NCBI GenBank assembly: GCA_964490325.1 | Contig: CAZBBX010000005.1 | Span: forward strand, 20,121 to 84,120 | Source of the DNA: an uncultured Oscillospiraceae bacterium | GTDB lineage: Bacteria; Bacillota; Clostridia; Christensenellales; CAG-138 | Direction: 5' to 3' | Length of the DNA stretch: 64,000 nucleotides | Part shown: one piece after another, positions 46,472-51,607 of the stretch | Numbering within the stretch: the stretch's first letter is position 1 | How the letters are laid out: each line of letters starts with the position of its first letter | Notes under the pieces: generated by a model | What the model was told of the DNA's origin: nothing | Seen by the model: the letters and a program-made list of their open reading frames with translations, nothing else | Database searches by the model: none | Made by a program: the position numbers and the translations under genes

Positions 46472-46551
46472 CGGGTGTGTGGCTGTTGTGCTGTGAGACG
46501 GAAACGTCCAAGGCGGGGGAACGCTTCGGGGGTCTCCCACAAGTTTGCATC

Positions 46552-46585
46552 AAAAAGGGGCGGCCGTTTCGCCGTCCCTTTTGAG
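46552..46585 (+). terminator. Terminator hairpin, copy 1 (plus-strand oriented, after the deacetylase gene)
   Basis: AAAAGGGGCGGC-cgtttc-GCCGTCCCTTTTGAG, an 8-bp stem containing one G-U pair. Confidence 0.6.
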
Positions 46586-46651
46586 TGTCTGTCGATGGGC
46601 AAGGAAAGTCCTGCCGCAGCAGGCTCGCCAAACACATTGGTTCTTGCGGAC

Positions 46652-46685
46652 GAAAAGGGGCGGTCGTTTCGCCGTCCCTTGCCTG
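46652..46685 (-). terminator. Terminator hairpin, copy 2 (serves the minus-strand DUF4956 operon)
   Basis: The hairpin is nearly identical to copy 1 (GGGGCGGTcgtttcGCCGTCCC). On the minus strand it is followed by CTTTTCG and lies 13 nt after the stop at 46698. Confidence 0.55.
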
Positions 46686-46697
46686 CAAGCTTTTTCC

Positions 46698-47405
46698 TTA
46701 TGAGATCATGTCGCCCTGATGCGCGATGAGCGTTGCGTCGTACACGCCGTCCACGCGCAGGAACTTGTCGACAAAGCCCGTTTCGCTCTGACGCACACGC
46801 AGTTCCACAGCCATCTCGACGCCGTCCTGCTGGACGGTCTTGCTCTTGAGCTTGGCCTGCGGCAGCTGCGCGACCATCTGCTTGACGGTCTTGGAGGCGC
46901 GGTCATCGTAGTGCAGGATGAGCAGGTACGGGAGGGTAGCCTTGCCCTTGACCACGGTGATGAGGATCATCAATAGGCCGATCAGTGCAAAGCCGATGAT
47001 GCCCTCCAGGAAGTAGCCTGCGCCAAACGCGATGCCCTGCGCGATCGCCCAGAACATGAACACGGTGTCGATGGGATCCTTGATGGCCGTGCGGAAACGC
47101 ACGATGGACAGCGCGCCGACCATGCCCAGCGACAGCTTCATGTTGTTGGACATGAACATGATGACCATGGAGCTGACCATGGTGAGCATCACAAGGCTGA
47201 GGTTATAGCTGCGCGAGTAGATCACGCCGGAGAAGGTCTTCTTGTACACAAAGAAGATGCCCAGTCCGAACACGAACGCGCACAGGATGGTGGCGATGAC
47301 CAGCACGGGCTGGTCGCTGCTTTGGAAGGTGAAAATGGAACTTAGGACGCTGCTGCCGCCTGTTGTTGCGGTGGCAGTATCGGTCATACGCAGGGATTCA
47401 AGCAT
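46698..47405 (-). CDS. DUF4956-domain membrane protein
   Basis: SLGMVGALSIVRFRTAIKDPIDTVFMFWAIAQGIAFGAG matches my memory of the DUF4956 core. There are 4-5 TM helices plus a soluble C-terminal domain. Confidence 0.75.
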   Translation of the reverse strand: MLESLRMTDTATATTGGSSVLSSIFTFQSSDQPVLVIATILCAFVFGLGIFFVYKKTFSGVIYSRSYNLSLVMLTMVSSMVIMFMSNNMKLSLGMVGALSIVRFRTAIKDPIDTVFMFWAIAQGIAFGAGYFLEGIIGFALIGLLMILITVVKGKATLPYLLILHYDDRASKTVKQMVAQLPQAKLKSKTVQQDGVEMAVELRVRQSETGFVDKFLRVDGVYDATLIAHQGDMIS

Positions 47406-47446
47406 AACTTCCTCCTATTATTTCGGCCGCGCTGCGGCTCGTTTGC

Positions 47447-48136
47447 TTACGCTTCGTAGCGGCGGCAATACAGGTATTTGCTTGCCGCACTGTGCTGTGC
47501 GCTGTCCAGCTGCAGCAGCATACGGATGTACGCCGGCAGATAGCTGTTGAACTTGACCTCCAAAATGCACTGGCCGTCCATGCCGTCGGCGGGATAGGTC
47601 GGTACGTTTGGATCGAACAGATCGGTCTTGCGCAGCGAGCTGCGCACATCGCGGTCAAAGGTGATGCGAACGTCCTCCACGGGAAAGACGTAGGGTTCGC
47701 GCATGTAATCCACCAGTACACGCGGCTTGAGCGCACGGGTACGCAGCGCCGCATATGCCTCCTTGGCAAAGGGCTCGCTGCGATGCAGCAAAAAGCCGTA
47801 CTGCCCCGCAAGCAGGGCGTCGCACTCGCGCCTTGTGAGCGAAACGCTGTCCTTTTTGATGAATTGTCCGTTCTTGTGCTTGCGCTCCAGTTTGATCGCC
47901 GCATCGCTCATGTTGTAGATGCGGATGCGATACTTGTCGCGAAACTCCACGCCGGAGACCTTCTCCGTCACGGCTCGCTCGTAGGGGTCGTCGAAGTACA
48001 GACTGCGGATGAAGTACTCCCCGCCGTTCTTGACGGCGTGGGGATCCTGCGCCAGCGTGAGCCGAAGCCGCGTGCTTAACAGCGCCGCTTCCTCCTCGCT
48101 GATGATGTATTTTAGCTCGTGCCGATACCCGCTCAT
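47447..48136 (-). CDS. VTC-domain (polyphosphate-polymerase-like, CYTH/TTM tunnel fold) protein
   Basis: MSGYRHELKYIISEEEA...IRSLYFDD...RIRIYN...LERKHK...ILEVKF shows alternating charged beta-strands with an N-terminal ExK signature, typical of the bacterial VTC domain. Confidence 0.75.
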   Translation of the reverse strand: MSGYRHELKYIISEEEAALLSTRLRLTLAQDPHAVKNGGEYFIRSLYFDDPYERAVTEKVSGVEFRDKYRIRIYNMSDAAIKLERKHKNGQFIKKDSVSLTRRECDALLAGQYGFLLHRSEPFAKEAYAALRTRALKPRVLVDYMREPYVFPVEDVRITFDRDVRSSLRKTDLFDPNVPTYPADGMDGQCILEVKFNSYLPAYIRMLLQLDSAQHSAASKYLYCRRYEA

Positions 48137-48160
48137 GCTTGCTCCTTTGTTCCTGCCGCC

Positions 48161-51100
48161 CTAAGCGCCGAAGATACGCTGCATATCCTCGTCGCCAAGG
48201 TGGTAGCTCGTGTGTTCGTTCATATACTGTTGGCAGTACTTGAGAAAGTAGCTGCCGTAGTTGTTCGCAAAAGCGCGGACGTTGTTCAGATGCTTGTTCC
48301 AGTTGCTCACAGAGTTCCCAAAACGCGGCATATCCCATTTCATCTCCGCCTCGATGACGCCTGCTAACTGATCCGTCTTTGCAAGCACCTTTTCGGTGGT
48401 GAAGACCTCCTTGTAGAGCGTGGCGCAGGCATTGACGAAGCGCTCGCAAAAGTCATTATTGGACAGAAGCGCTCGAGACAGCACCGTGGAGAAGCCCGCA
48501 TTGGCGCCGTGCCCCTCCGGCTTGAAGTAGCGCCAGAAGAAGTCCCTGCGGTAGCCCGAGGTGTACGCGTCCTCCTTCTCGTCGTTGCGGTTCATCGCCC
48601 AGTCAAAGTCGTAGATGATGAAGCGCCACCTGTTGTCCTTTTCGCTGGAGCGCCACCACTTGATGTTGCCCGTGTCCGTGTTGCCCACCAGGATCTCTAT
48701 GGCGCAGTAGAGCGCGTAGTTGTCCACATCCACCTTGGAGCAGACATAGGCGTACTCCTCCGCGTTGAGCGAACAGTTGCGATCCTTGCAGTATTGGATG
48801 AGCGCCGCCCAGTCGTCCACGGCGCTCTCATCGCCGGAGACGTATGCGCCGTTGCCCACTAAGACGTCGATGCTGCCCTTGTCCGTGACGCTGTAGTGCT
48901 GGGCAATGAAGCTGCGGCTGATCTTCTCGCGCAGATAGTACATGCCCCAGTAGTTGCCGTTGAGGTAGACCACCGTCTGCACATAGGCCTGCGTACACAG
49001 ATCCAGCCCCGCGTCCTCCACCAAGCTCTGCACCAGCACGTCGCGGATCTTGGACATGGAGCTGTCCATAGCGCTTGCGCGCAGCACCAGCGAATCGTAG
49101 CTCGTAAACGGCCGATCGTCAAAGAAGGCATAGTTCAGATCCGACTCGCCGAAGCCCTTGCGGGAGATGAGGCCAAAGCCCTTCTGCTCGCGCTGAAAGC
49201 GGGAGTACGCGCCGAACATGCGGATCATCAGATCGCCTTCGTACAGCTCGCCGCTGCCGCCGCTGTTGACATAGGTAAAGCTGGCCTGCCGCTCCCATTC
49301 GCGTCCGCTTTGGTTGTAGTTGGCGCCAAGCTTGGTCGTGTCGTTGTAGCTGCTGCTGCGCAGGTACAGGCCGATGGTGTCGTCCGTGAGATTTTTGGGA
49401 TCGGTCACAAGGAACACCACCTTCAGCGAGGTGGAATGCGCCTGCTCCGTCTCGTTGGCGGGGTCGACGATGACATAGGTCTCGGTCGCAACATCGCTTG
49501 CCAAGCAGCCGTCGCGGAACGCTCTGGCGCGAACGACCGTGTTGGCGGGTGCGTTCTTGAGGCGCTGCAGGCTCTTGCTTGCGCTGTCCTCCGCGTCCGC
49601 CTCCGTTCCCGCGGGATCCACAGGCGCCGCCTTCCAGCTTGCCGTGATGACCTCGCCCGCGGTGTAGCGCGTGCTCGACTCGGTGGGCGTGCTGCAATCC
49701 AAGGTGTAGGTCACATAGCAGCCCTCCGGCACGGTGATGGTGATGCTCTGCGTCCCCGTGTACAGGCCGCTCTCCAAGGAAAGCGCGGGAGCCTCGCAGG
49801 TGGAGGTGCAGCCGCTTTGCACGTTTGCCGCGCCCATGGTGGGCGTCTCCATGAGGAGCCACTGCCCCGCGTCGTTGCGTCCGTAGGACACGCACGCACG
49901 ACAGGCGGGCACCTCCACGCGGTCGGTCATCTCTCCCGCCGCGTCAAACAGATACAGGGTCTCCCCCGCCGCCGCAATATCGAAATTCAAGGTGAGCGCC
50001 TTTTGCTCGGCGGTCACGGAGCTTGCGCTCTGTCCCTCCAAGGGCAGGCTGCCCTCTAAGTATACGATGAGATATCCTTTTGCGGCGATACTCGTTCCGT
50101 CAGGAAAAACCCATTTCTTGGGATTGGCGATGTTGTCCGTCAGCGCCATCCCCGTGAGGCTCTGCTCCTGATCGGAAGCGTTGTACAGCTCGATCCACGA
50201 CCCAAGATCCGCATCGTCGGGTCTGCCCTTGCTGTTGATGGTGTAGGCGTAGCCCTCCGTAAGGATCTCGGAGAAGCGAATGTCGTGCACGCCCACGTTG
50301 GGATAGCGTGCCGCCTCCCACGCGTCATAGCCCCCCTGTGTGTTGGGATAGCCGGGGGAGATGGTGGTCGTTGCCACAAAATCCGCCCCCGCCACGAACG
50401 CGCCGTTGGCGTCGTAGGGTCTGGCCATGCTGACGTCCTTCTGCTGCGCGCCAAACTCCACGCGATCCAGAATGCCGCCGTTCGCATCGGTCAGCACAAG
50501 GCTCTCGCCGTTTGACGAAAGGCCGAAGGGCAGGCAGTAGTAGCCCTCCACATCGTCCGCCGTGCTGTAAAGGACCAGATACGCGCCGGGGGCAAGGCTC
50601 GTCCCCTCGGCAAAGGTGTATTTGTAGGGCTTGGCGGGATCGTCCGAAACGCCCACGCCGCCAAGATCCAAGCTTGCGCTGCTGCTGTTGTACAGCTCCA
50701 CCCAGTCGCAGAAGCTGCCGTCGGGTCCGACCACGGTGTTGTGGTTGGCAGCCATGAATTCGGTGATGTACAGCCCGTTGTGAGCGGTGGTCAGCGTGCC
50801 GGCGCCGCTGCCGTCGGTGGGGATGGTGATGCTCTGCTCGTAGGCCTCCACGCCCTCGTCCGTGTTGGGATAGCCGGGGCTGGGCAGCTTTTCAAACCAT
50901 GTTTCCGTTTGGGGGTCGTAGTAGTAGGTGTTGCCTGCGCGCAGCTCGGGCAGCTCCTTTTGCAGCAGCACCGTGCCTGTGGCGTCCATGAAGCGCAGCA
51001 CATCCCCCGCCGAGAGCTTGAAATTGGCGATAAGGGTGTTTTCGACCGTCTTGCCGCTGCACCACACGACCAAGTACCCGCCTGCCTCGATGACGGTGTT

Positions 51101-51400
51101 GTTGGGGAAGGTCCAAGCGTCGGTCTCACGATCGCTCAGCGCCCAGCCGCTCACGTCCACCGCCTCGCTGCCGCGGTTGTACAGCTCGACATAGTCGGGA
51201 TGCTCGCCGTACTCGTCCGTCACAAGACCCGTGTTGGAGGTCATGACCTCGCTGACGATCACGGGAGAGCTTTGCCCCTCGTTCTTCGCCTTGCCGCTGC
51301 TGTTCACGCAGTTGGCAATGATGAGCACCACCACAAAAAAAATAAGAAAGGCCGCGATAAGGCCGAGTTGTGCTGTTCCTCTTCGCTTTGTTGCTTTCAT
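48161..51400 (-). CDS. Membrane-anchored CotH-family kinase-like protein with three lamin-tail-like domains
   Basis: The ATG is at 51400 (MKATKRRGTAQLGLIAAFLIFFVVVLIIANC). The LTD-like segments are DYVELYNRGSEAVDVSGWALSD, CDWVELYNSSSASLDLGGVGVSDD and GSWIELYNASDQEQSLTGMALTDN. The C-terminal ~450 aa are CotH-like (YLNGNYWGMYYLREK, NIKWWR, IIYDFDWAM). Confidence 0.8.
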   Translation of the reverse strand: MKATKRRGTAQLGLIAAFLIFFVVVLIIANCVNSSGKAKNEGQSSPVIVSEVMTSNTGLVTDEYGEHPDYVELYNRGSEAVDVSGWALSDRETDAWTFPNNTVIEAGGYLVVWCSGKTVENTLIANFKLSAGDVLRFMDATGTVLLQKELPELRAGNTYYYDPQTETWFEKLPSPGYPNTDEGVEAYEQSITIPTDGSGAGTLTTAHNGLYITEFMAANHNTVVGPDGSFCDWVELYNSSSASLDLGGVGVSDDPAKPYKYTFAEGTSLAPGAYLVLYSTADDVEGYYCLPFGLSSNGESLVLTDANGGILDRVEFGAQQKDVSMARPYDANGAFVAGADFVATTTISPGYPNTQGGYDAWEAARYPNVGVHDIRFSEILTEGYAYTINSKGRPDDADLGSWIELYNASDQEQSLTGMALTDNIANPKKWVFPDGTSIAAKGYLIVYLEGSLPLEGQSASSVTAEQKALTLNFDIAAAGETLYLFDAAGEMTDRVEVPACRACVSYGRNDAGQWLLMETPTMGAANVQSGCTSTCEAPALSLESGLYTGTQSITITVPEGCYVTYTLDCSTPTESSTRYTAGEVITASWKAAPVDPAGTEADAEDSASKSLQRLKNAPANTVVRARAFRDGCLASDVATETYVIVDPANETEQAHSTSLKVVFLVTDPKNLTDDTIGLYLRSSSYNDTTKLGANYNQSGREWERQASFTYVNSGGSGELYEGDLMIRMFGAYSRFQREQKGFGLISRKGFGESDLNYAFFDDRPFTSYDSLVLRASAMDSSMSKIRDVLVQSLVEDAGLDLCTQAYVQTVVYLNGNYWGMYYLREKISRSFIAQHYSVTDKGSIDVLVGNGAYVSGDESAVDDWAALIQYCKDRNCSLNAEEYAYVCSKVDVDNYALYCAIEILVGNTDTGNIKWWRSSEKDNRWRFIIYDFDWAMNRNDEKEDAYTSGYRRDFFWRYFKPEGHGANAGFSTVLSRALLSNNDFCERFVNACATLYKEVFTTEKVLAKTDQLAGVIEAEMKWDMPRFGNSVSNWNKHLNNVRAFANNYGSYFLKYCQQYMNEHTSYHLGDEDMQRIFGA

Positions 51401-51607
51401 TCCAATTCCTTCCGTCCGCGTATCGCGTCCGCATCCTGCTTGCGTACAAAAGCGGAGGCGCCGCGCTTGGCGGCAGCCGCTTTTTATGGGCACAACGGAA
51501 AAAGGCCTTCCGCGCCGACCCATTCATGTTGTTCATGATACCACAGGCTTCATAAAAATACCACGTTTGGCAAAAGAATTTACAAGTTCGCCGAAACTGT
51601 GCGCCTT

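Follow-up and report, generated by a model that had tools for sequence, protein, structure and literature searches.

Genes encoding a CotH protein, a polyphosphate (polyP) polymerase and a DUF4956 protein, in some cases with DUF4832, are known from the literature as accessories to the pel loci of Gram-positive bacteria (Whitfield 2020, PMC7112168; PMC12345266). In S. intermedius the counterpart is SIR_1594-1592, where loss of the CotH gene and loss of the DUF4956 gene have opposite effects on aggregation and Pel level, deletion of the VTC gene brought no reported change, and the authors suggested that the polyP is cytoplasmic (PMC12345266). The missing phenotype of the VTC deletion counts against a strictly linear pathway from VTC through DUF4956 to CotH. 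The trio was therefore already on record beside pel loci. The initial annotation of our sequence held the function of the trio not to be established, and in the literature searched we found no published function for the operon, and hence none different from the one proposed.

We analyzed a window of 64,000 nucleotides from an uncultured Oscillospiraceae bacterium, in which the CotH-like, VTC and DUF4956 genes follow one another on the minus strand at 46698-51400 (Table 1). The arrangement first annotated, three co-directional genes for a lamin-tail-domain (LTD) CotH protein of 1079 aa, a VTC protein of 229 aa and a DUF4956 protein, with gaps of 24 nt (CotH/VTC) and 41 nt (VTC/DUF4956), was confirmed. 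A hairpin followed by a T-run starts 20 nt past the DUF4956 stop and is likely the operon end. A terminator scan returned a separate weak site at 46623-46610. The neighbors in the window comprise gyrB, gyrA and the gene of a CCA-adding enzyme, plus a CE4 deacetylase gene in convergent orientation, and the gene order gyrA-CCA-CotH-VTC-DUF4956 is also kept in a relative (L038). The three genes form an operon-like unit that is co-inherited in many lineages.

Table 1. Features of the CotH/VTC/DUF4956 locus (positions in the window).
Feature	Position	Strand	Details
CotH-family protein	48161..51400	-	1079 aa from M42; start of the initial annotation, ATG 51400-51398
N-terminal signal anchor	51305..51367	-	LGLIAAFLIFFVVVLIIANCV, KRR before it
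Three LTDs	49829..51274	-	Pfam PF00932, 3 stretches, E 6e-52; approximate spans 50924-51274, 50339-50782, 49829-50290
CHB_HEX_C_1/Fn3_assoc Ig-like domain	49475..49774	-	Pfam E 1e-8 and 7e-6; residues 584-683 of the 1120-aa ORF
CotH kinase-like domain	48251..49225	-	Pfam E 6e-42, 144.7 bits
Putative catalytic-loop Asp D950 (1120-aa numbering)	48674-48676	-	codon; motif NTD; B. subtilis CotH D228
Putative metal-binding Asp D972 (1120-aa numbering)	48608-48610	-	codon; motif YDFDW; B. subtilis CotH D251
Shine-Dalgarno AAGGAG, VTC gene	48147-48142	-	inside 24-nt gap
VTC-domain protein	47447..48136	-	229 aa; Pfam PF09359, E 2e-35
Shine-Dalgarno AGGAGG, DUF4956 gene	47416-47411	-	inside 41-nt gap
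DUF4956 membrane protein	46698..47405	-	235 aa; Pfam E 1e-8
Terminator-like hairpin GGGACGG...CCGCCCC + TTTT	about 46678-46653	-	read by eye

An accessory role in Pel-type exopolysaccharide synthesis, as in streptococci, clostridia and bifidobacteria, would have the trio phosphorylate or regulate the Pel machinery. The published contiguity with pelDEADAFG and the aggregation phenotypes (PMC7112168, PMC12345266) argue for such a role, as do five PelF-like and three PelG genes among the 110 immediate neighbors of related loci. However, PelG was absent from this genome in a genome search, the flanks of most related loci are unrelated, and both the neighbors in the window and the synteny retained in L038 speak against it as well. 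The trio lies outside pel loci in this genome and at most related loci, which contradicts the pel-locus authors, who stated that they had not found it anywhere else, and we consider this role very improbable. Pel as a general explanation is refuted here, and could hold only with another polysaccharide in its place. The genes flanking related loci are heterogeneous, which indicates that the module moves as a unit.

The association of the three families was surveyed in 401 genomes of the host's phylum, 68 of which carry VTC. VTC and DUF4956 occurred together in 67 of these 68 genomes (Fisher p 2e-74, 401 genomes), and CotH was present in 55 (p 5e-47) and missing from 13, with the trio clustered in 45; these statistics ignore shared ancestry, the VTC-positive genomes representing 53 genera. 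VTC adjoins DUF4956 at 76 of 82 loci, and DUF4956 is a near-obligate membrane partner of the VTC protein. At 62 of 80 related loci found with DUF4956 as seed the three genes shared a strand, with three different gene orders represented, and this arrangement recurs far more than expected by chance. Pairwise distances of VTC and DUF4956 were correlated (r = 0.85, 105 pairs), which we read from the sequences as co-evolution. Exported CotH was accompanied by VTC and DUF4956 in 55 of 57 genomes, while both were absent from all four genomes with only coat-type CotH (352-368 aa, no signal). The CotH-less pairs often have another exported protein in the place of CotH, a Cthe_2159 beta-helix lipoprotein, which was encoded directly after 5 of the 10 pairs scanned; the Cthe_2159 family was found in 13 of 31 VTC-positive versus 2 of 170 VTC-negative genomes (p 2e-10). 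Taken together, CotH, VTC and DUF4956 very probably constitute one functional three-part module.

The VTC protein is filled by a single domain (Pfam PF09359), which scores 122.8 bits (cut-off 23) over residues 5-223, and SPX and transmembrane (TM) segments are absent from this soluble protein. Alignment with Vtc4 showed that nine of nine triphosphate and Mn residues were kept (K9=K200, R70=R264, R72=R266, K86=K281, Y144=Y359, R146=R361, E193=E426, S219=S457 and K220=K458). Conservation was judged on alignments of 24 and 72 sequences; eight of the nine were invariant among the 72, and S219 was kept in at least 90%. The structure model (pLDDT 94.4) ranked Vtc4 first in Foldseek (3g3r, E 5.6e-13, TMq 0.74), its best 12 matches were all central domains of VTC complexes, and Vtc2 and the TTM hydrolases ranked lower. 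Both sequence and model thus predict a cytoplasmic triphosphate-tunnel enzyme with a complete Vtc4-type active site, which is probably a polyP polymerase. The protein could instead be a tunnel hydrolase or cyclase (a triphosphatase, or ATP/NTP-cleaving) that gates or energizes the MgtC-like DUF4956 protein, with CotH using an unrelated donor. Such an enzyme would share its fold with ygiF, CYTH cyclases and triphosphatases, which appear at ranks 14-40, and the invariant N-terminal motif R5-x-E7-x-K9 retains a Glu from the ExExK motif of the hydrolases at a position occupied by Thr in Vtc4. Yet the closest structure and sequence matches are Vtc4, and every residue proven by mutation for polyP synthesis is kept, including the K458 equivalent, which is missing from the inactive Vtc2/3; a hydrolase or cyclase is therefore improbable.

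DUF4956 was the sole family listed for the membrane protein at E <= 0.01 (35.3 bits; cut-off 30.6), Pfam MgtC being below threshold. The model contains TM helices 33-57, 65-86, 111-128 and 132-153 and a half-helix at 89-99, which is followed by the most conserved loop of the family, SIVRFRTAIKD, with R103, R105 and K109 invariant; this R-x-R...K group is predicted on the cytoplasmic side. The C-terminus (158-228) is modeled as an ACT-like beta-alpha-beta-beta-alpha-beta domain. No PDB relatives were found by profile search, and hhalign matched the family to MgtC/SapB (92.9% probability, E 3.8e-7, 193 columns). The modeled tail matched ACT and MgtC C-terminal domains (7qa5, TMt 0.56; a weak match, Foldseek E about 0.06). 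Based on these comparisons, DUF4956 is remotely related to MgtC/SapB and ends in an ACT-like domain. MgtC acts as a regulator of F-ATPase and PhoR and is not known to be a channel, and two ordinary MgtC genes lie elsewhere in the same genome. The initial annotation had proposed that DUF4956 could supply the channel of a split VTC, but a structure search with the model found no similarity of its TM part to the TM domain of Vtc1/3/4. The idea of a synthase plus channel is therefore an analogy, not a homology.

The CotH-like ORF is open to 51523 (48161..51523, 1120 aa); the M42 start has GGAAGGA just before it and gives an anchor-like N-terminus, MKATKRRGTAQLGLIAAFLIFFVVVLIIANCV. From this anchor the protein runs through three LTDs with core motifs DYVELYN, DWVELYN and SWIELYN and an Ig-like domain missing from the initial annotation to the C-terminal CotH kinase-like domain, which matched B. 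cereus CotH (5jd9) with a profile E of 1.8e-52. A signal anchor preceded by KRR puts everything after it on the outer side of the membrane, and an N-terminal signal or anchor was present in 83 of 89 trio-linked homologs. Both aspartates were kept in all 28 LTD-type and in 57 of 59 short-type linked CotH proteins. The position +5 from the catalytic Asp, canonically Asn, was R or K in 21 of the 28 LTD-type proteins, and Asn stood at +3 in 24; the loop may have shifted by two residues. The LTD-CotH protein is thus predicted to be anchored outside the membrane with its two catalytic aspartates kept. A spore-coat kinase like that of Bacillus, which would make the operon a sporulation function, fits the CotH family membership and a host whose closest named relatives put it in the Clostridia. 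Nevertheless, the anchor and three LTDs contrast with the signal-less coat-type proteins, the four coat-type-only genomes lack the other two genes, and the module occurs in non-sporeformers and one archaeon among the controls. In these 14 control genomes, VTC and DUF4956 were found in the same three (B. thetaiotaomicron, C. glutamicum and M. acetivorans), and CotH in those three and B. subtilis. We regard a sporulation role as extremely improbable.

The initial interpretation, a split VTC-type polyP machine coupled to an extracytoplasmic kinase and possibly tied to sporulation, stood in part. Co-occurrence was very strong, the polymerase and tunnel residues were all of Vtc4 type, and CotH lies on the extracytoplasmic side as proposed; the split VTC and the sporulation angle were not supported. 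Our favored reading, which we put forward tentatively, is that polyP made inside reaches the outer face by way of DUF4956, and that this is the side on which CotH acts. The trio would then be a self-contained envelope module spanning the membrane: the VTC enzyme would polymerize polyP from ATP at the membrane, and a DUF4956 oligomer would take the chain and pass polymer or phosphoryl groups to the outer face, a transfer that the inside-negative membrane potential would aid. The trio may transmit phosphate chemistry from the inside of the cell to the outside. That the product gets outside through or at DUF4956 is quite possible, although we would not presume it. With no ATP outside, the LTD-CotH protein might use the polymer as phosphoryl donor, or alternatively attach or tether it to some protein or polymer of the surface to which the LTDs and the Ig-like domain bind. 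We know of no kinase of the CotH/Fam20 fold that uses polyP, and polyP as the donor of CotH is unlikely.

Alternatively, polyP may stay inside or at the inner membrane face, DUF4956 only tethering or regulating the enzyme in an MgtC-like manner with its ACT-like tail as sensor, and the exported CotH or Cthe_2159 protein being co-regulated in a surface or biofilm program, with any phosphoryl donor coming from elsewhere. The MgtC homology and ACT-like tail are consistent with this, as are the cytoplasmic polyP and the deletion phenotypes of S. intermedius (PMC12345266) and the two-component systems that often flank the VTC/DUF4956 pair, which fit a regulated physiology. In addition, PPK1 was not found in this genome and is lacking from 48 of the 68 VTC genomes, whose polyP synthase the pair could simply be. 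What internal polyP leaves unexplained is that the third gene product, CotH or Cthe_2159, is always exported, the pairing of exported but not cytoplasmic coat-type CotH with VTC and DUF4956, and a soluble polymerase with a dedicated polytopic partner in nearly every VTC genome; we hold it to be somewhat unlikely. A broader form of the export reading would be a prokaryotic, PPK-independent VTC-like machine, in which a cytoplasmic tunnel polymerase, seated on an MgtC-like oligomer, extrudes polyP to the outer side, and exported proteins (CotH-fold kinases at our locus, Cthe_2159 lipoproteins elsewhere) use it instead of ATP or capture it. This generalization is decidedly speculative. If it were true, CotH would be the first kinase of protein-kinase-like fold driven by polyP, and the role of a polyanion conduit would fall to DUF4956 and perhaps, by extension, to MgtC.

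Compared with the yeast VTC complex (Vtc4/Vtc3 or Vtc2/Vtc1; PDB 3G3Q, 3G3R, 7YTJ and 8I6V), our VTC protein has a homologous catalytic tunnel domain (profile E 3e-16) with the full set of triphosphate and Mn ligands, and a soluble polymerase domain is likewise combined with a small polytopic membrane protein whose conserved basic residues face the cytoplasm. In contrast, our trio has no SPX domain, and its membrane part is a separate MgtC-like protein of four TM helices, a half-helix and an ACT domain, whereas the yeast pore is pentameric and built from a three-helix DUF202-type domain, of which neither the VTC nor the DUF4956 protein shows a trace. The target would also be the cell exterior rather than the vacuole, with an exported partner enzyme added. 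The pel-accessory trio matches ours in its three families, which lie side by side in one direction, in an exported CotH and in a DUF4956 described as combining an MgtC-like TM domain with an ACT domain; our locus differs in having neither a pel locus nor DUF4832, in its order CotH-VTC-DUF4956 and in its CotH, which has about 1080 aa and three LTDs, compared with about 570 aa and an FN3 domain in the pel-linked protein. MgtC/SapB proteins (C-terminal structure 7QA5) share the TM block followed by an ACT-like tail, and the G-x-x-G-A region aligns, but DUF4956 is set apart by an invariant R-F-R...K loop of its own and by the linkage to VTC genes. Bacillus CotH (PDB 5JD9/5JDA) has a homologous kinase-like domain with both catalytic aspartates, yet it is a signal-less protein of about 360 aa in an ATP-containing mother cell, unlinked to VTC or DUF4956, whereas ours is anchored outside. 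Finally, Fam20C-type secretory-pathway kinases (PMC7821199) have a related atypical fold and act outside the cytosol as well, but their phosphoryl donor is ATP that the Golgi lumen imports. The bacterial cell surface has no such ATP supply, which makes the link between CotH and VTC suggestive.

The three genes of the window, which encode a CotH-family protein with lamin-tail domains (LTDs), a VTC-domain protein and a DUF4956 protein, represent a real and conserved module that is laid out across the membrane. On re-reading the ORFs, the coordinates and descriptions assigned to this trio by the initial annotation proved correct. Its 1079-aa start for the CotH-family protein (M42 of the 1120-aa ORF, ATG at 51400) is likewise adopted here, given the GGAAGGA just upstream and the classic signal anchor, MKATKRRGTAQLGLIAAFLIFFVVVLIIANCV, that opens this form. 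Its domain list held for the LTDs and the CotH domain but omitted an Ig-like domain: Pfam annotations placed a CHB_HEX_C_1/Fn3_assoc Ig-like domain between the three LTDs and the C-terminal CotH domain of this protein, and gave a full VTC domain in the second and DUF4956 in the third. No NCBIfam model matched any of the three, and single-sequence queries of the PDB returned no match for any of them, so that profiles were used for the VTC and CotH matches given below. The intergenic gaps measure 24 and 41 nt, each with a strong Shine-Dalgarno sequence (AAGGAG and AGGAGG). A hairpin with a T-run was identified by eye 3' of the DUF4956 stop; a promoter and terminator scan of the locus gave nothing exceeding shuffled sequences. 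The stretch that separates the DUF4956 gene from the deacetylase gene convergent to it holds two near-identical hairpins with T-runs, spaced by ∼100 nt (46550-46680). The Endonuclease I protein near the operon, whose core is followed by a long extension without Pfam match, is probably another large exported enzyme. The window sequence was found in DNA runs only, from bioreactor, sludge, wastewater and manure metagenomes.

Genes of the trio and its surroundings, in window positions
Feature	Size	Position	Strand
CotH-family ORF	1120 aa	48161..51523	minus
VTC-domain protein	229 aa	47447..48136	minus
DUF4956 protein	235 aa	46698..47405	minus
CCA-adding enzyme, gyrA, gyrB, recF		upstream of trio	same strand as trio
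CE4 deacetylase		downstream of trio	convergent
Endonuclease I protein	933 aa	41330-44131, downstream of trio	

The initial annotation had suggested that the three families may work together, and they clearly co-occurred both in 401 genomes sampled evenly across the window's phylum, where the three Pfam families were searched and their coordinates combined, and at 80 related loci. Among the 401 genomes, VTC and DUF4956 were each present in 68, with 67 in common (Fisher p 2e-74, ignoring kinship), and DUF4956 lay within 1.5 kb of VTC at 76 of 82 VTC loci, the other six being mostly contig ends or partial hits. CotH was present in 55 of the 68 VTC genomes (p 5e-47, ignoring kinship) and in seven genomes without VTC; it lay within 3 kb at 49 of the 82 VTC loci, and 45 of the 68 VTC genomes carried the clustered trio. 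These counts are uncorrected for shared ancestry, the VTC-positive genomes comprising 53 genera. Among 14 control genomes, VTC and DUF4956 were confined to B. thetaiotaomicron, C. glutamicum and M. acetivorans, each of which had both, and CotH occurred in these and B. subtilis. The 80 loci, taken from named genomes (mostly Clostridia MAGs, plus Paenibacillus, Cytobacillus, Butyrivibrio and others) and seeded with a narrow DUF4956 alignment, had all three genes on one strand in 62 cases, ordered VTC-DUF4956-CotH (28), CotH-VTC-DUF4956 (23), CotH-DUF4956-VTC (9) or in variant arrangements (2). The second order is that of the window, and its CotH proteins measure ∼960-1150 aa. Pairwise distances of VTC and DUF4956 were correlated as well (r = 0.85, 105 pairs).

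Two candidate fusions were set aside. One apparent fusion (P0187) was a frameshift artefact, and a 489-aa ORF with DUF4956 followed by VTC (L007:4161-5630, genome G394) probably reflects read-through of a frameshift and not a genuine fusion, because its linker is unlike the family. At one locus (L039, a MAG labelled Sulfurovum) the trio adjoins a GT2 glycosyltransferase and two DUF3131 genes; since VTC was absent from 150 other genomes of that phylum, mis-binning or horizontal acquisition of the contig may account for its presence. In the phylum of a candidate diderm (G432), VTC occurred in 1 of 151 genomes.

A profile of 24 diverse VTC homologues matched the yeast Vtc4 catalytic domain (E 3e-16), and Vtc4 structures ranked first against the AlphaFold model of the VTC protein (pLDDT 94.4; 3g3r, E 5.6e-13, TM 0.74), with Vtc2, ygiF and CYTH hydrolases/cyclases below. 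A cryo-EM study listed the Vtc4 residues that coordinate triphosphate and Mn and are required for polyphosphate (polyP) synthesis (bioRxiv 10.1101/2023.01.27.525886). Read against this set, the profile alignment revealed that the window protein keeps every one: K9, R70, R72, K86, Y144, R146, E193, S219 and K220 correspond to yeast K200, R264, R266, K281, Y359, R361, E426, S457 and K458, respectively, so that none of the tunnel residues bearing on the VTC-type assignment of the initial annotation is lost. K458 is the sole one of these residues missing from the inactive Vtc2/3 (bioRxiv 10.1101/2023.01.27.525886), and all nine were invariant or nearly so in alignments of 24 and 72 sequences. The N-terminal strand reads R-x-E-x-K, retaining one Glu of the hydrolase-type ExExK motif, whereas that of yeast Vtc4 reads R-x-T-x-K. 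Unlike the yeast VTC complex, the window protein has neither an SPX domain nor a TM segment.

DUF4956 is a large family (5028 clusters at 50% identity). Its model (pLDDT 85.5) comprised four full TM helices, a half-helix (89-99) leading into a conserved loop, and a C-terminal beta-alpha-beta-beta-alpha-beta domain. The loop, LSLGMVGALSIVRFRTAIKDP, is the most conserved stretch of the family, with R103, R105 and K109 invariant. By the positive-inside rule, the N-terminus would lie outside, and the RFR...K loop and C-terminal domain in the cytoplasm. Foldseek matched the C-terminal domain only, with weak E-values, to RelA-type ACT domains and the MgtC C-terminal domain (7qa5), and found no match for the TM part, VTC complex chains included. 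Profile-profile comparison with 12 MgtC proteins of related genomes gave 92.9% probability (E 3.8e-7, 193 columns). Because this match covers both the TM block and the C-terminal tail, DUF4956 is, as judged from profiles, a distant MgtC/SapB relative, and a study of S. intermedius likewise relates it to MgtC (PMC12345266). The proposal that DUF4956 supplies the missing TM half of a split VTC complex is thus not borne out, the protein being MgtC-like with a TM part that matches no VTC chain; "split VTC" is an analogy. The genome of the window also carries two ordinary MgtC genes (contigs C39 and C7).

For the third family, a profile of trio-linked CotH proteins matched B. cereus CotH (5jd9, E 2e-52). 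Mutating either of two aspartates, D228 and D251, inactivates B. subtilis CotH (PMC7821199); in the 1120-aa ORF their counterparts are D950 (motif NTD) and D972 (motif YDFDW), and both were kept in 28/28 long proteins with LTDs (LTD-type) and 57/59 other linked CotH proteins (short-type). In LTD-type proteins the position +5 from the catalytic Asp, canonically Asn, is R/K in 21/28, and Asn stands at +3 in 24/28, which may represent a loop shift. The catalytic loop of this type (window 48650-48680; related loci L027-L106) reads D-x-G-N-x-[R/K], in contrast to D-x-x-x-x-N in Bacillus and short-type proteins.

CotH genes not adjoining VTC were also fetched, and every CotH protein was scored for an N-terminal hydrophobic segment. 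The segment was present in 83 of 89 proteins linked to VTC/DUF4956, the remaining six being over-extended or truncated ORFs. Unlinked CotH proteins carried it in 22 cases, 21 of them in genomes having VTC-DUF4956 elsewhere; six unlinked proteins without signal were of the short (352-368 aa) Bacillus type, four of them in genomes without VTC. On these counts, VTC and DUF4956 accompany exported CotH in 55 of 57 genomes, and the two exceptions are draft assemblies, one with CotH at a contig end. The VTC-DUF4956 pair was absent from all four genomes whose CotH was of the spore-coat type alone. A second LTD-CotH lipoprotein (1129 aa) in the genome of the window (C15:26362-29751) has no adjoining VTC gene; a neighbouring gene encodes a 598-aa dockerin-domain protein.

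CotH was missing from 13 of the 68 VTC genomes. At five of ten CotH-less pairs scanned (L008, L024, L025, L048 and L065), a beta-helix protein of the Cthe_2159 family occupied the CotH position, with a lipoprotein or anchor N-terminus in all five. In a 201-genome subsample, Cthe_2159 was present in 13/31 VTC-positive versus 2/170 VTC-negative genomes (p 2e-10), including 5/7 CotH-less VTC genomes, and adjoined the pair wherever contigs permitted. Because the pair is joined either by CotH (62 of 80 seeded loci) or by Cthe_2159 (5 of 10 CotH-less pairs), VTC and DUF4956 form the core of the module and the third component varies, being usually an exported protein in the loci examined. The genome of the window itself has a second, more divergent pair without CotH (C27:1-2573; L001, L005), with DUF4428, SPFH and Tim44-like genes upstream. 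A lipoprotein start, MKKIYGYTALLLTLSLLVCGC..., lies 3' of this pair, and another frame holds a weak Cthe_2159-like stretch (25.2 bits, cut-off 25.8), which may reflect gene disruption or misassembly.

The module sets a Vtc4-like polymerase inside the cell, the MgtC-like partner in the membrane and the exported CotH kinase, or the exported beta-helix protein at other loci, outside. In the most economical mechanism, the VTC-DUF4956 pair would deliver polyP to the outer face for its exported partner. We put forward this mechanism as a whole tentatively, as a possible reading, and regard it as quite improbable that CotH uses polyP as phosphoryl donor. The export pattern is as expected if exported CotH depends on VTC and DUF4956 while cytoplasmic CotH does not. 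The main rival, which we consider only slightly less likely, holds that polyP is cytoplasmic, the MgtC-like partner regulatory and CotH merely co-regulated. For S. intermedius, it was suggested that polyP remains cytoplasmic; deletion of the CotH or DUF4956 gene there lowered aggregation, with Pel levels shifted oppositely, and VTC deletion produced no reported change (PMC12345266).

Among the papers searched, none assigned the trio a function. PPK1 (PF02503) was not detected in the genome of the window (95.5% complete) and was absent from 48 of 68 VTC genomes sampled. VTC does not replace PPK1 as a rule, with no anticorrelation observed (PPK1 in 20/68 VTC versus 50/333 other genomes, odds ratio 2.4). 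A working VTC-type polymerase, if true, would fill the polyP synthase gap in VTC genomes without PPK1. No phosphoryl donor is obvious for kinase-fold enzymes exported to bacterial surfaces, and a dedicated polyP supply would explain extracellular phosphorylation of envelope or matrix components. In addition, the DUF4956-MgtC link would suggest a hypothesis that can be tested on the unexplained MgtC family, and the small, portable module occurs in the tractable C. glutamicum, B. thetaiotaomicron and Paenibacillus.

Two-component systems were the commonest neighbours of the related loci, and since response regulators and histidine kinases led among 110 flanking genes, such a system may control the module. 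A gene pair of ∼230 and ∼430 aa often adjoins VTC-DUF4956 (L084, L098, L101, L008, L025 and others). The trio families and DUF4832 have been reported from streptococci, clostridia and bifidobacteria as accessory genes that directly adjoin pelDEADAFG (PMC7112168), the trio families also from C. perfringens NELoc-2 (PMC2879425), and the trio was stated not to be found outside pel loci (PMC12345266). No PelG (PF16933) was detected in the genome of the window (95.5% complete), about five PelF-like and three PelG proteins were present among the 110 immediate neighbours, and one related locus (L038) shares the synteny gyrA-CCA-CotH-VTC-DUF4956. With the housekeeping flanks, these observations indicate that the module is portable and independent of pel. 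The pel accessory clusters adjoin pel genes, whereas the window trio is flanked by housekeeping genes in a genome without PelG; it is one more member of a module already in print, with the LTD-type CotH-first arrangement, in a genome lacking both pel and PPK1.
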